Source: Candidatus Fervidifonticultor sextus (GTDB lineage Bacteria > Sysuimicrobiota > Sysuimicrobiia > Sysuimicrobiales > Humicultoraceae). Taken from it: a DNA stretch of 39,567 bases. The stretch is from contig JAVKHQ010000025.1 of assembly GCA_031459875.1 (NCBI GenBank), forward strand, positions 1 to 39,567, given 5' to 3'. Below, piece by piece: positions 1 through 32,078 of this stretch; the first letter of the stretch is position 1, and the number at the start of each line of letters is the position of its first letter. The translations under genes and the position numbers were made by a program. The notes beneath the pieces are model-generated. The model was not told the DNA's origin, searched no databases, and worked only from the letters and a program-made list of their open reading frames with translations.

Positions 1-690
<690 letters not shown>

Positions 691-20095: not shown

Positions 20096-20578
20096 CTACG
20101 CCTCTGCCGCGCCGGCCATCCGGTCGGCCCACCGGGAGGGGATCTCCATGACGAACTGCCGGTCCTGGTCCCCCTGGCCGAAGCCGCACTGGATGCGCAG
20201 GTGGTCGGGCGGAAGGAGGCCGGAGGCGCGGTCCGCCCACTCCACGATGAGGATCCCCTCGTCGGCCAGCTCGTCGAGGCCCAGGTCTTCGATCTCCTGG
20301 GGACGTTCGAGCCGGTAGAGGTCGACGTGGTAGACGCGCAGCGGCCCCCGGTATTCACGGATGACCACGAAGGAGGGGCTGGCGATGTAGCCGGAGGCGC
20401 CAGCGCCCAGGGCCAGGCCCCGGGCCAGCACCGTCTTGCCCGACCCCAACGGCCCCACCAGGGCCACGACATCGCCCCGGCGCAGCCTGGCCCCCACCCG
20501 ACGCCCCAGGGCTTCCGTGGCCTCGGGCGAATGGGTGGCGATCACCACGCGCACCGCAGAGAGGGCTCCCGCCGGCAT
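20096..20578 (-). CDS. tsaE: t6A biosynthesis ATPase TsaE
   Basis: GPLGSGKT, SPSF, YHVDLYRL, IVEWA. Confidence 0.95.
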   Translation of the reverse strand: MPAGALSAVRVVIATHSPEATEALGRRVGARLRRGDVVALVGPLGSGKTVLARGLALGAGASGYIASPSFVVIREYRGPLRVYHVDLYRLERPQEIEDLGLDELADEGILIVEWADRASGLLPPDHLRIQCGFGQGDQDRQFVMEIPSRWADRMAGAAEA

Positions 20579-26813: not shown

Positions 26814-27285
26814 CGCACCTCGATCCCCGTGGGGCGCACGGCCGCGGGCACCGTCGCGGCGATGGCCACCGGACGGCCGTCGCACAGGTAGATACGGGGA
26901 ACGCGCCGGCTGACCCTGCCGGACAATTCGTACGGGACCGTCCCGGCCGCCTGTGCCACCTGATCCGCCCCGAGGCCGGGGCCGAACACCGTCACCTCAT
27001 CGCCCTCGCGCACGGGCGCCCCGCTGACGTCGAGCATGGTGTAGTCCACGCAGACGCGCCCGGCACGCGGTGGCGGGTGGCGCCGACCAGCATCGTCCCC
27101 ACGTTGCTCAGTGCGCGGGGAGCCCGTCCGCATAGCCCACCGGGACCGTGACGATAGTCGTCGGCCGCGGCGCCCGGTCGTGGCGCCGTAGGCGCCCCAT
27201 GCCCGTTGTGCGCGACGGCCCCCAGATCCACCTCGGCCCGGGTCCGGGACGTGGCGAGGGCCAGGCCTGAGAGCGGCGAGGTCAC
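26810..27285 (-). pseudogene. alr: Alanine racemase remnant (large internal deletion plus frameshifts)
   Basis: N-terminal TRAEVDLGAVAHN is joined directly to C-terminal motifs YGAT, TVPVGYADG, PRALSN, GRVCVDYTMLDV, GTVPYE and RVPRIY, which lie in different frames. Only 476 bp in total. Confidence 0.9.
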
Positions 27286-28865
27286 GGCGGGAGGAGCGGC
27301 GTCACGAGTTCAGCATACGAGCCCGTCCGCACAGCGGCCAGCGCCGCGGGCAGGGCATCGGCGACCTCCCGGGCCAGGATGCCGGCCGGCCCGCGCGCCG
27401 CCGCCACCTGGTCGCCGGCCAGGCCGTGGAGGTACGCGCCCGCCCAGGCCGCCGCCAACGGGGTCACGTCCTGTCCGATCAGGGCGGCGATCACCCCCGC
27501 CAGCACGTCACCCATGCCGCCGGTGGCCATGGCGGGATTGCCCGTCGGGACCACGAACACATCGCCGGCGGGCTCGGCCACCACGGTCCGGGCCCCCTTG
27601 AGGACCACGACGGCGCCCAGGCGCTCGGCGGCGACCCGCGCCACCTGCAGCCGGTGTCGCTGGACCTCCTCCGTCTTCGCCTGCAGCAGGCGGGCCATCT
27701 CGCCGGGGTGAGGGGTCAGCACGAGGGCGCCGCGGGCGGCCGGCCAGTCGCTGGAGCCCGCCATGAGGTTCAATGCGTCGGCGTCCAGGACCATGGGCTT
27801 TGCGCACTCCGCCACCAGCCGTCGGATCACGGCTGCAGGCCCCGGCCGCGTGGACAGGCCGGGCCCGCAGGCGATGGCGTCGGCTGCGGCCGCCAGGTCC
27901 AGGATCGGTCCGGCCGCCTCGGCGGCCAGGGCGCCGTCCCGGTCCGGCAACGGCACCGGCATCCCTTCGATGACCGCCGGCCCCACGACGGGGTAGATCG
28001 CGGTGGGGACGGCCAGGGTCACCAGCCCGGCCCCCGCCCGCAGGGCGCCCTGGGCGGCCAGCACCGCCGCCCCGCTGTGCCCCACCGAGCCCGCGACCAC
28101 CAGCACCCGGCCAAAGTCGCCCTTGTGGGCGGCCAGCCGGCGGGGGCGGATCGCGCCATCCACCATCTCCCGCGTGACCAGCCGCGTGCGGATGCCGGCC
28201 GCCTCAAGCAGACGCCTGGGATGCCCCACGTCGGCCAGCCAGATGCGGCCGGCGTGCTCCGCCCCTGGAGGCATGATGAGCCCGATCTTGGGCAGGCCCA
28301 TGGTGACCGTGGCCGCCGCGCGGACGGCCACCCCGTCCACCGCACCGGTATCGCCCACGACGCCAGAGGGGATGTCCACCGACAGCACGGGTCGGCCGCA
28401 CGCGTTCATCGCCTCGATGGCCTTCGCGGCCAGGCCCACCACCGGGCCGCGGAACCCGGTCCCGAAGAGGGCATCCACGACCACGTCGGCGGCGGCCAGG
28501 GTCCCGCGCAGGCCCGGGACCGCCGTGCTGTCCAGGTTGACCACCTCGACCCCGGCGCGGCGGGCCGCCCGCAGGTTGAGGGCCGCATCACCGGCCAGTT
28601 CGGCGTCCCGCGCCAGCAGGACGACGGTGACGCGCCACCCGGAGGCGAGCAGCACCCGGCTGGCCACAAACCCGTCGCCGCCGTTGTTCCCCTTACCGGC
28701 CACGACCACGGCCCGGGCGACCTCGCGGCCGACGAGCCGGCGCGCGGCCTCGGCCACGCTGCGGCCGGCGGCCTCCATGAGCAGCAGGGTGGACACCCCG
28801 AACTCTTCGGCCGCCCGGCGGTCTAGAGAGGCCATCTCCTCGCTGGTCGGAAGGTACACGCCCAC
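27282..28865 (-). CDS. nnr: Bifunctional NAD(P)H-hydrate epimerase/dehydratase
   Basis: LMEAAG, GKGNNGGDG, DALFGTG, DIPSG, HKGDFG, DADALN, LTPHPGEM, GGMGDVLAG. Start uncertain (28859, 28865 or 28916). Confidence 0.96.
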   Translation of the reverse strand: MGVYLPTSEEMASLDRRAAEEFGVSTLLLMEAAGRSVAEAARRLVGREVARAVVVAGKGNNGGDGFVASRVLLASGWRVTVVLLARDAELAGDAALNLRAARRAGVEVVNLDSTAVPGLRGTLAAADVVVDALFGTGFRGPVVGLAAKAIEAMNACGRPVLSVDIPSGVVGDTGAVDGVAVRAAATVTMGLPKIGLIMPPGAEHAGRIWLADVGHPRRLLEAAGIRTRLVTREMVDGAIRPRRLAAHKGDFGRVLVVAGSVGHSGAAVLAAQGALRAGAGLVTLAVPTAIYPVVGPAVIEGMPVPLPDRDGALAAEAAGPILDLAAAADAIACGPGLSTRPGPAAVIRRLVAECAKPMVLDADALNLMAGSSDWPAARGALVLTPHPGEMARLLQAKTEEVQRHRLQVARVAAERLGAVVVLKGARTVVAEPAGDVFVVPTGNPAMATGGMGDVLAGVIAALIGQDVTPLAAAWAGAYLHGLAGDQVAAARGPAGILAREVADALPAALAAVRTGSYAELVTPLLPP

Positions 28866-28939
28866 CGGTTCTTGTCGGCCGAGCGGGTTTCCTCTTGCAT
28901 TGCCCACACTATCCACATCCCCAGAACGGCCGTTGGGGA

Positions 28940-28968
28940 TTGACGGTCTGGAGGTCCCTTGATACGGT
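28940..28968 (+). promoter_or_regulatory. Sigma70-type promoter for the intergenic RNA
   Basis: TTGACG (28940-28945), 17 bp, TGn, TACGGT (28963-28968). The expected +1 (~28975) is the first base of the RNA's closing stem. Confidence 0.75.
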
Positions 28969-28974
28969 AACGTC

Positions 28975-29144
28975 AGAGGGGCGCGAGCCTAACGGCGAAG
29001 TAGCCGAGTCAAACGCCGCGCACGTGGACGCCGAGAGTTTGCTAAGTGTACTTCGGGGGTAACTCCGGAGAACGGCTGGCGGACGGTAGGCACCGGCGGT
29101 GCGGCCGAAGACGGTGAAAAGCCGGAGGAAGCCAGCGCCCCTCT
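28975..29144 (+). ncRNA. Putative ~170-nt rod-shaped ncRNA (6S RNA-like candidate, family not confirmed)
   Basis: Perfect 10-bp closing stem AGAGGGGCGC/GCGCCCCTCT, nested symmetric helices with G-U pairs, apical GUAA (GNRA) loop, own promoter, no ORF. Confidence 0.7.
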
Positions 29145-29190
29145 TCGCTGCTCCCTGAACCCCTGCGGGCCACCCTGGATCGAAGACGCG

Positions 29191-29571
29191 TCAGTGGCCG
29201 AGCGCGATCGCCTGGGCGACGGCGTGCTCGTGGGTGTGGGACAGCGCCACCATCACGGTGACGATGCCCCGTTGCTGGGCGATGCGCCGGGCCGCGCCGT
29301 GCAGGCGGACGGTGGGCCGGCCGGCGGGATCGTTGGCAATCTCGATCTCACGCCAGGCCAGCGCCCGCCAGCCCACGCCGAGCGCCTTCATGACCGCCTC
29401 CTTGGCCGCAAACCGGGCCGCCAGCCGCGGGCCGGACGGGGCCGCCGACGCCGACCGTTCGATCTCGCCAGGCGTGTAGATCCGGCGGACGAAGGCCTCA
29501 CCCCACCGGGCCACCGCGCGCTCGATCCGCTCTACCTCGACCATGTCCACGCCCACGCCGAGCACCGTCAT
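29191..29571 (-). CDS. acpS: Holo-ACP synthase
   Basis: GVGVDMVE, LAARFAAKEAVMKALG, GRP, LSHT. Confidence 0.96.
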   Translation of the reverse strand: MTVLGVGVDMVEVERIERAVARWGEAFVRRIYTPGEIERSASAAPSGPRLAARFAAKEAVMKALGVGWRALAWREIEIANDPAGRPTVRLHGAARRIAQQRGIVTVMVALSHTHEHAVAQAIALGH

Positions 29572-29732
29572 GCCGGCCACTCGGCCTCCTCGATGAGCAT
29601 GATCGGAATGCCGTCGCGGATCGGGTACCGGCGGCCGCACTGCGTGCAGATGATCCGGTCGCCCTGCCGCACCACCGGCGCGTGGTCGGCCGGACAGGCC
29701 AGGATCTTCAGGAACTCCTCATCGATGTCCAC
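29568..29732 (-). CDS. Trm112/YcaR-like small zinc-binding protein
   Basis: ILACP...CTQCGRRYPIRDGIPIML; SD GGGAGG before GTG 29732. Confidence 0.92.
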   Translation of the reverse strand: MDIDEEFLKILACPADHAPVVRQGDRIICTQCGRRYPIRDGIPIMLIEEAEWPA

Positions 29733-29800: not shown

Positions 29801-31648
<1,848 letters not shown>

Positions 31649-31749
31649 GCGAAACCTCCATGAGGGGACGCGCGTCGCGCAGCGCGCACGCGGAAGCCTC
31701 CCCGGGATTCCTTTCCCTGTCAGCGGACCTGACAGACTTGCCGTGGGAT

Positions 31750-31923
31750 CCCTGACCGCCTTTTGGCCCGGAGTCGCCTCCGGGGTTTGTGGGCGGCCTT
31801 CACCTCAGCGCGCGGTGGTCTGGCTGAGGCTGTGCAGGCCCGGGCCGGGCCTAGGGTCACCCGCCGAACACTTCGAGATCCCCTCCCTCGTCAACCCGAC
31901 ATCGACGCCGGGTCCGGGCGCTT
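31750..31923 (-). ncRNA. glmS ribozyme (GlcN6P-activated riboswitch)
   Basis: A^GCGCCCGGAC-P1-GUUGACGAGG-GGGG-UCGAAG-UUCGGCGGGUGACCC core, then ACAAA-CCCGGAG-GCGA-CUCCGGG-CAAAA P4; directly upstream of glmS. Cleavage predicted between 31922 and 31921. Confidence 0.95.
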
Positions 31924-32078
31924 GGGGCACACCGACGAACCGTCTCACCTCCTCGCGTGCTGTCGTGTCGGACGGTGGCCTCTTCGAGGCTCCCTCCCCC
32001 GTTCCCTGTCACATGGAAGACGCCCGTGACCTGGTAGAAGCGCTCGCCGGAGATCGTCTGCCGGCATGGGCGTGGCGG

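Follow-up and report, generated by a model that had tools for sequence, protein, structure and literature searches.

A structured non-coding RNA family of Sysuimicrobiota and its conserved promoter cassette of DnaA-box-like and LexA-box-like sequences

Introduction

In the genome of Candidatus Fervidifonticultor sextus (GCA_031459875.1), a member of the phylum Sysuimicrobiota (CSP1-3), the interval between acpS and nnr carries no annotated gene, and an earlier note, made from the letters of this DNA, had read it as a free RNA of about 170 nucleotides (nt) with its own promoter. Is there a gene here, does its product belong to a known RNA family, and what might it do? We addressed these questions in positions 1 to 39,567 of contig JAVKHQ010000025.1, a stretch of 39,567 nt (hereafter the window), and call the candidate gene RNA-1. 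It is almost certainly a real, free-standing gene for a structured RNA of a new family, and the novelty concerns that RNA family. Few structured bacterial RNAs of comparable size combine strong covariation with a lack of known relatives, and earlier examples (6S, OLE, raiA and ROOL) each started a line of work.

RNA-1 is a strand-specific rod with covarying pairs

The promoter TTGACG-17-TGn-TACGGT and a perfect 10-bp closing stem, P1, were found where the earlier note had placed them; P1 pairs AGAGGGGCGC (28975-28984) with GCGCCCCUCU (29135-29144) and opens with an A at 28975. The + strand of RNA-1 folds with -92.3 kcal/mol, against -67.8 (sd 4.3) for shuffled sequences (z -5.73; 0/200 shuffles equal it), whereas its reverse complement reaches only -65.4 kcal/mol (z -1.36) and is equalled by 21 of 200 shuffles. 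The structure is thus strand-specific, as had been proposed, and far beyond chance.

Relatives confirmed the fold. In an alignment of 30 RNA-1 copies made independently of any model (A1, 82% mean column identity), RNAalifold recovered the nested, unbranched rod of the earlier note, with 44 pairs, 15 of which show compensatory changes. In a larger alignment of 73 copies, 63 of them distinct (A3), 97.1% of cells are paired and 26 of the 44 pairs changed on both sides, although A3 was fitted to our covariance model R1 and so leans towards structure, and the relatives are not independent, so that such counts overstate the support. None of 500 column shuffles of A3 reached any of five measures, and sliding the partners by 1-3 columns left no more than 12 compensatory pairs and lowered the covariation score from 0.296 to 0.078 or less. 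A1, aligned without the model, gives the same picture. Two unpublished genomes (G013 and G022) are included in the counts and aligned rows throughout, and no result depends on either alone.

In P1, five of the eight modelled pairs changed on both sides, and the fourth pair of the apex hairpin is swapped between C-G and G-C (37 vs 23 times). At the centre, where a roughly 10x9-nt bubble had been drawn, the rod is not open: conserved C-G, G-C, U-G and G-C pairs lie inside the supposed bubble, the flanking pairs covary, and 12 of the 13 pairs of the helix containing it do so. An alternative fold with two T-loop-like hairpins, also proposed earlier, is disfavoured, since the rod pairs are compensatory (CG/UA/GC at 21:210, GC/AU at 22:209 and 23:208) and 10 of the 63 distinct sequences do not form the alternative pair 197:210.

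The length between the conserved blocks is constant at 78-82 nt in all 30 sequences of A1, and the window copy, which scores 197.4 bits with R1, carries the blocks UAGCCGAnUCAAA, ACGUGGA, CCGGCG and AAGACGGUG at spacings of 8, 64 and 9 nt. Three internal loops are invariant (AGUA/GAA, UCAAAC/GAAGA, and CGUGG/CGGCG with a G.G mismatch), on both strands of the rod, and paralogues differ mostly in the distal part. The segment GCC-GAA-GA-CGG might be taken for a K-turn; when it was checked by hand against the K-turn consensus, the required G-A was wanting on the opposite strand. As a separate observation, an L7Ae-family gene is encoded in the same genome.

No conserved open reading frame (ORF) was found within RNA-1, which holds only short arginine-rich frames. 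We therefore rejected a type I toxin mRNA or other small ORF, as there is no conserved hydrophobic-peptide ORF and substitutions are pairwise, not codon-wise. Downstream of P1, at least five T within 8 nt follow the stem in 45 of the 62 distinct RNA-1 copies.

No known RNA family accounts for RNA-1

No Rfam 15 family matched the RNA-1 region at the gathering thresholds, and loosening the search to E<=10 brought up nothing but a fragmentary sucC match that we attribute to chance (16.4 bits, E 0.98); the 6S model had no match at E<=10 anywhere in 28800-29300. The earlier note had wavered between a very divergent 6S RNA (RF00013) and a new class. RNA-1 does resemble 6S RNA in its size (6S being about 170-190 nt), in the long closing stem formed by its ends, in its rod shape and in being a free-standing gene with its own promoter. 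It differs, however, in having no model match and no large open central bubble, the supposed one being largely paired, and in being multicopy in one family. Moreover, as the note had suggested looking for, the genome has a canonical full-length 6S RNA elsewhere (contig C1, 76457-76645, 69 bits), its sole 6S match. By model match and fold, we conclude, RNA-1 is no 6S RNA, not even a divergent one. A signal recognition particle (SRP) RNA was likewise excluded, with no SRP match at RNA-1 and the genome's own SRP RNA at C2:15531-15797 (172.5 bits with the large model, 74 bits with the small one).

Bacterial Y RNAs, the partners of Ro/Rsr proteins, also have ends that form a closing stem and can occur in multiple copies, and in Deinococcus they are linked to DNA-damage responses. 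We rejected a Y RNA or YrlA identity because a search for the Ro/TROVE domain, positive in a Deinococcus control, found it in 0/94 genomes of the phylum, and because there is no Rfam Y-RNA match. What stands is the second option of the earlier note, a new RNA class: no Rfam family matches, and the covarying fold recurs in 74 of 94 genomes. A literature search, with supplementary files outside its scope, returned nothing linking CSP1-3 or Sysuimicrobiota with noncoding RNA, and in the parts of the Sysuimicrobiota paper PMC11604079 that were covered, non-coding RNA, sRNA and 6S RNA go unmentioned.

RNA-1 is, as far as searched, confined to one phylum and lies in many gene contexts

A DNA search detected RNA-1, with 73-93% identity, in 34 of 41 related genomes. 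The covariance model R1 extended this to the 74 of 94 genomes of the class mentioned above, and a phylum-wide search returned the same 94 genomes. By family, it was detected in 31/33 genomes of f1, 17/22 of f2, 23/23 of f4, and the single genomes of f6 and f7 (1/1 each), and in none of f5 (0/12) or f3 (0/1). Outside the phylum, R1 found no copy in 151 sampled Chloroflexota, 151 sampled Actinomycetota and 5 other genomes. A pattern scan of named genomes yielded at least 119 stretches, 80 of them with flanking DNA, and R1 confirmed 25 of these 80 loci; among the matches listed, the confirmed ones include Armatimonadota bacterium, Candidatus Geohabitans tengchongensis and Candidatus Fervidifonticultor secundus, and all true matches in named records among those listed are Sysuimicrobiota-type metagenome-assembled genomes (MAGs), the NCBI taxonomy placing Ca. 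Geohabitans within Candidatus Sysuimicrobiota. As far as searched, the RNA-1 family is restricted to this phylum. It is the signature non-coding RNA of a globally common, uncultured phylum, and R1 lets annotators mark its gene in MAGs and corrects a tempting '6S' label.

Genomes of family f4 carry 1-8 copies each, some in tandem. Two such tandem pairs, on the same strand and about 130-155 nt apart, lie at G067:C21:20779-21267 and G068:C33:96036-96551.

The surroundings of RNA-1 vary widely. Among 30 loci, 20 are flanked by nnr and acpS, three by nnr alone and seven by neither, and adjacency to nnr is limited to two families. In f6 the neighbours are genes for a ferredoxin and a beta-CASP nuclease; in f4 they are an M20 peptidase or DUF1844 gene and a DUF255 thioredoxin-like gene, and further f4 copies adjoin genes for ABC binding proteins, peptidase M50, formate-tetrahydrofolate ligase, LonC, molybdopterin oxidoreductases and others. 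Among 20 f4 loci, about seven have a close co-directional downstream gene and about nine a convergent one, so there is no orientation rule. Its occurrence in unrelated contexts and in either orientation marks RNA-1 as a free-standing gene and not as an antisense element or leader. Together with the conserved promoter, this bears out the earlier proposal of a free + strand RNA gene.

The promoter of RNA-1 carries a conserved cassette

When the upstream DNA of all RNA-1 copies was aligned, conservation extended well beyond the -35 hexamer. The core promoter itself is conserved as TGnTAnnnT in f1, and the strict pattern TTGnnn-16..18-TAnnnT occurs in 33 of the 62 distinct copies, 27 of which also have the TG. 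(An over-specific promoter pattern, searched phylum-wide, matched only 2/94 genomes and is uninformative.)

Upstream of the -35 stand two abutting 9-mers resembling TTATCCACA and TTGTCCACA, which we take to be the DnaA-box consensus words. At least one such box (<=1 mismatch) was present in the upstream stretches of 45 of 61 distinct copies, 24 of which had at least two; among background windows taken from these loci, only 20 of 5396 (0.4%) had any. Promoters of f4 copies often have perfect TTATCCACA, with 2-4 boxes each. The genome contains 13 perfect DnaA boxes, four of them upstream of dnaA, a clustering which implies that the organism uses the usual DnaA box. Same-strand box pairs at 9-nt spacing occur in the assembly only upstream of RNA-1 and of a second RNA, RNA-2, described below. 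Judged by their sequence, the elements at the RNA-1 promoter are DnaA boxes.

The dnaA cluster, on the rpmH side of the gene at C6:27374-27605, comprises four perfect boxes and one near-perfect box, and the DnaA C-terminal domain is encoded at C6:29630-29830; the cluster is likely the oriC or the dnaA promoter of this organism.

Between the DnaA boxes and the -35 lies an inverted repeat, GAAC-N4-(G/T)TT, which was found at a fixed position in 48 of the 62 distinct copies. The repeat resembles the LexA boxes of the organism itself, whose recA and lexA promoters carry GAAC-N4-GTTT and GTAC-N4-GTTC: its own LexA boxes are GAACATTTGTTT between the recA hexamers, GAACACGTGTTT at lexA-1, and GTAC-N4-GTTC, twice, at lexA-2. 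As a side observation, two LexA paralogues are encoded (C1:7175-7366 and C6:14424-14612), each with its own LexA-type boxes upstream, GAAC-N4-GTTT at one and GTAC-N4-GTTC at the other, which may represent two operator specificities.

Parts of this arrangement have precedents. LexA-controlled small RNAs of the IstR/tisB type in enterobacteria are likewise small non-coding RNA genes with a LexA-box-like operator at the promoter. The enterobacterial RNAs, however, are short, work as antisense or base-pairing RNAs and are linked with a toxin gene; the 170-nt rod of RNA-1 has no toxin ORF within it or close by, and its promoter has DnaA boxes in addition. Outside oriC, the Bacillus subtilis sda promoter is regulated by DnaA. 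Closely spaced DnaA site pairs are described in E. coli (PMC11317965, in the parts covered here), and RNA-1 shares with such non-origin promoters the box pair just upstream; the product at RNA-1, however, is a structured RNA, not a protein. At the level of titles and abstracts, the literature held no structured RNA gene fronted by DnaA boxes.

A second, unrelated RNA stands behind the same cassette

The composite motif GAAC-N4-KTT-N4-ATTG has two sites in the 3.05-Mb assembly, one at RNA-1 and the other at C67:68164, upstream of RNA-2 (Table 1). There, too, two abutting DnaA-like boxes and GAAC-N4-GTT are followed by ATTGACG, 17 nt and TGnTAnnnT, and in 30 aligned f1 loci of RNA-2 the GAAC repeat was kept in 30 and a DnaA box in 28. 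Like RNA-1, RNA-2 belongs to this phylum, is free-standing, ends in a stem and a U-run and has no match in Rfam; 7 of its 31 pairs show compensatory changes. Unlike RNA-1, it is an 89-nt hairpin of different sequence and fold, and R1 had no match to it in the genome search. The two RNAs are not homologous in sequence or fold. A shared CACGUGG...CCGGCGG was considered and dismissed, since in RNA-2 it falls within a helix that varies and relatives do not keep it, making it a coincidence of this genome.

By blastn, RNA-2 was found in 31/33 genomes of f1, 11/12 of f5, 11/22 of f2, 1/1 of f7 and 1/23 of f4. It is thus present in f5 and nearly missing in f4, the reverse of RNA-1. In genome G017, an RNA-2 copy (C32:20014-20148, + strand) and a diverged RNA-1-like copy (20208-20370, - strand, 63 bits) lie tail to tail, 60 nt apart.

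Metatranscriptome contigs cover RNA-1 and not its flanks

Assembled contigs of two RNA studies matched RNA-1, with the proviso that contigs of this kind do not reveal strand or true ends and that DNA can be carried over into RNA libraries. The first, a sediment metatranscriptome (X3), yields contigs with 100% identity to the window that span 28977-29129 and no more, at a depth of about 27-58; in a hot-spring metatranscriptome from another study (X6), contigs extend over 28980-29080. In both, the flanks 28722-28943 and 29166-29350 are at zero coverage, while a DNA run (X1) reads through both flanks. Two chimeric joints in RNA contigs (29129 to 28977, and 29080 to 28980) lead back to within 2-5 nt of the predicted +1, and the X3 contig with the first of them lacks exactly 29050-29070, the apex hairpin. 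We read these as artefacts of reverse transcription, the enzyme having switched template or skipped the hairpin on an RNA that is both abundant and very stable, and the joints hint at the 5' end of RNA-1; alternatively, a circular or processed form could be the source of the joints and the 21-nt gap. Dataset X19 and parts of X3, X6 and X19 cover conserved coding segments of other organisms and were not used as evidence.

What RNA-1 may do

As the best explanation, held with a little less than even confidence when taken as a whole, we propose that RNA-1 acts in trans by binding a protein and that replication or DNA-damage status switches it. Its own promoter, of the housekeeping type, would start transcription at about 28975-28977, and the transcript would end at the closing stem, which would double as a terminator. 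From the upstream sequences we infer that DnaA and LexA, or a LexA-like factor, bind the cassette and set transcription, with induction under stress; combining DnaA boxes with a LexA-like repeat, the cassette probably ties RNA-1 synthesis to replication-initiation status and/or DNA damage, and RNA-1 and the ~89-nt RNA-2 would respond together through it. The rigid, fixed-length rod would dock a putative protein partner at its invariant internal loops, and RNA-1 would titrate or scaffold that protein.

The choice of a protein over mRNAs as the partner is guided by the alignments. Judged by eye, they contain no conserved single-stranded stretch of at least 8 nt common to all families, which argues against a base-pairing seed and, for want of any long stretch of this kind, makes pairing with mRNAs less likely than protein binding. 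A regulatory small RNA that pairs with mRNAs in trans would explain the free-standing gene, its own promoter and terminator and the stress-responsive look of the promoter, as well as the paralogue expansion with varied distal parts, which is typical of some small RNA families. We nevertheless consider it unlikely: RNA-1 is almost fully paired, its most conserved bases sit in short internal loops on both sides of the rod and offer no single accessible stretch, and in this genome Hfq gave no hit over the cut-off, only a sub-threshold one inside a 587-amino-acid frame.

Several observations weigh against the proposal of a protein-binding RNA under DnaA and LexA control. A generic sigma-70 and terminator scan found nothing at RNA-1, because TACGGT matches TATAAT at only three of six positions, and the promoter call thus rests on conservation across relatives; the U-run 3' of P1 is weak in the window copy (CUCUUCGCUGCUCC), although strong in other families. 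Each DnaA-like box in the window has one mismatch to TTGTCCACA or TTATCCACA. The GAAC repeat lies upstream of the -35, unlike the recA box with its place between the two hexamers; the repeat has a GC-rich spacer, in contrast to the AT-rich ones at recA and lexA, its right half is degenerate (GTTG in f1, TTTC in f4), and GAAC-N4-GTT alone is common, with 162 sites in the genome; on these grounds we call it LexA-box-like and not a LexA box. The cassette is wanting altogether in one RNA-1 subfamily (loci L008, L188, L193, L195, L196, L199 and L200). RNA-1 is also dispensable, given that f5 does without it: a more sensitive search of its 12 genomes, most of them 94-100% complete, revealed no homologue even with the threshold relaxed to E<=1 and gave nothing better than E 0.34. 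As to ready-made partners, the genome search for CsrA was negative, as were those for Hfq and the Ro/TROVE domain. The lean of A3, the relatedness of the copies and the nature of the RNA contigs, noted above, count on the same side.

Copies of the subfamily without the cassette (47-174 bits) share another conserved motif in their upstream DNA, AATAC...CCCGAT(A/G)G, a hint that they are regulated separately.

If the proposed reading is pressed further, RNA-1 and RNA-2 might be the RNA effectors of a phylum-specific replication and DNA-damage checkpoint, in which the promoters would read DnaA and LexA occupancy directly. For as long as the stress lasts, the RNA-1 rod would bind and restrain a core machine, such as RNA polymerase, the replisome or the replication initiator. 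We regard this extension as a long shot. If true, RNA would be doing here what small checkpoint proteins such as Sda do elsewhere, and direct control by DnaA would be seen for the first time in a class of structured non-coding RNAs. More generally, the cassette common to RNA-1 and RNA-2 suggests that the response to replication and DNA-damage signals has an RNA-based branch. Such a branch is directly testable because enrichment cultures of Sysuimicrobiota exist, according to the parts of PMC11604079 covered here.

RNA polymerase is also the target in a quite improbable alternative, namely that RNA-1 is a 6S- or Ms1-like polymerase binder and a second global regulator beside canonical 6S. Some bacteria do have two 6S RNAs, and a rod of ~170-180 nt with a strong promoter and a precisely sized, conserved architecture would suit this role. 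However, the Rfam 6S model has no match at E<=10 and the canonical 6S is found at another locus; covarying pairs fill the supposed central bubble, which leaves no large mimic of an open promoter, and up to eight diverged copies per genome are unlike 6S.

The earlier note had also raised an action in cis on the acpS-nnr transcript. In f1, RNA-1 always lies between these genes on the opposite strand (20/30 loci), as an antisense regulator of an acpS-nnr read-through transcript would. Yet the same RNA, promoter and terminator are kept in unrelated contexts (f4, f6, f7 and second copies), with neither gene nearby at 7 of the 30 loci and many different contexts in f4; conservation follows the RNA structure through compensatory pairs; and nnr is divergent from RNA-1 and may have its own promoter. 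We thus rejected the cis-antisense class for acpS-nnr: such an action is very unlikely to be the main role.

Alternatively, the functional element could be the DNA, a cluster of boxes that titrates or reactivates DnaA in the manner of datA or DARS, with the transcript a by-product or a modulator of DnaA binding. This would account for the tandem boxes conserved upstream of most copies and for the several copies per f4 genome, but selection on the RNA fold (26/44 pairs compensatory) and the presence of only 2-3 boxes per site make it similarly improbable. Least credible is a role as 5' leader or riboswitch-like attenuator, with the closing stem as terminator for a downstream gene, a class we rejected: a co-directional gene does follow the stem and U-run by 28-110 nt at several f4 loci (DUF255 thioredoxin-like, SBP_bac_5, peptidase M50), but these genes are mutually unrelated, convergent ones are about as frequent, and in f1, as in the window, no + strand gene follows RNA-1.

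Features of the locus

The coordinates of RNA-1, its promoter cassette, RNA-2 and the neighbouring genes are collected in Table 1.

Table 1. Features of the RNA-1 locus and of RNA-2. Positions are those of the window unless a contig is named.
Feature	Position	Strand	Remarks
Two abutting DnaA-box-like 9-mers, TTGCCCACA + CTATCCACA	28900-28917	+	-75 to -58 from the predicted +1
LexA-box-like inverted repeat GAACGGCCGTTG (GAAC-N4-GTT)	28924-28935	+	-51 to -40, 4 nt upstream of the -35
-35 hexamer TTGACG	28940-28945	+	-35 to -30; conserved while the spacer varies
Spacer, 17 nt	28946-28962	+	Between the -35 and -10 hexamers
Extended -10, TGaTACGGT	28960-28968	+	TG at 28960-28961, TACGGT at 28963-28968, to -7
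RNA-1	28975-29144	+	~170-nt unbranched rod with conserved internal loops and GUAA apex; fold, covariation, R1 197.4 bits
Closing stem P1, 5' half	28975-28984	+	Partner 29135-29144; in other families P1 and U-run read as an intrinsic terminator
Apex hairpin CUUCGGGG-GUAA-CUCCGGAG	29051-29070	+	Covariation at the fourth pair
nnr (YjeF_N + NAD(P)H-hydrate dehydratase)	27282-28835	-	Pfam; start at 28835 matches residue 1 of relatives; divergent from RNA-1
acpS (4'-phosphopantetheinyl transferase)	29191-29640	-	Pfam; convergent with RNA-1
glmS	29801-31648	-	Pfam
RNA-2	C67 ~68216-68300 (gene and cassette 68140-68300, loci L211/L212)		89-nt hairpin, -54.5 kcal/mol; outside the window

Elsewhere in the window, the 5' part of a 16S rRNA gene occupies positions 1-691 on the - strand and runs off the window start; upstream of it (about 700-1000, - strand) several TTGACA-type promoters were seen, and the DnaA/GAAC cassette was not found there. 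Upstream of glmS, at 31744-31933 on the - strand, lies a full-length glmS ribozyme (50.2 bits) in its ordinary arrangement.

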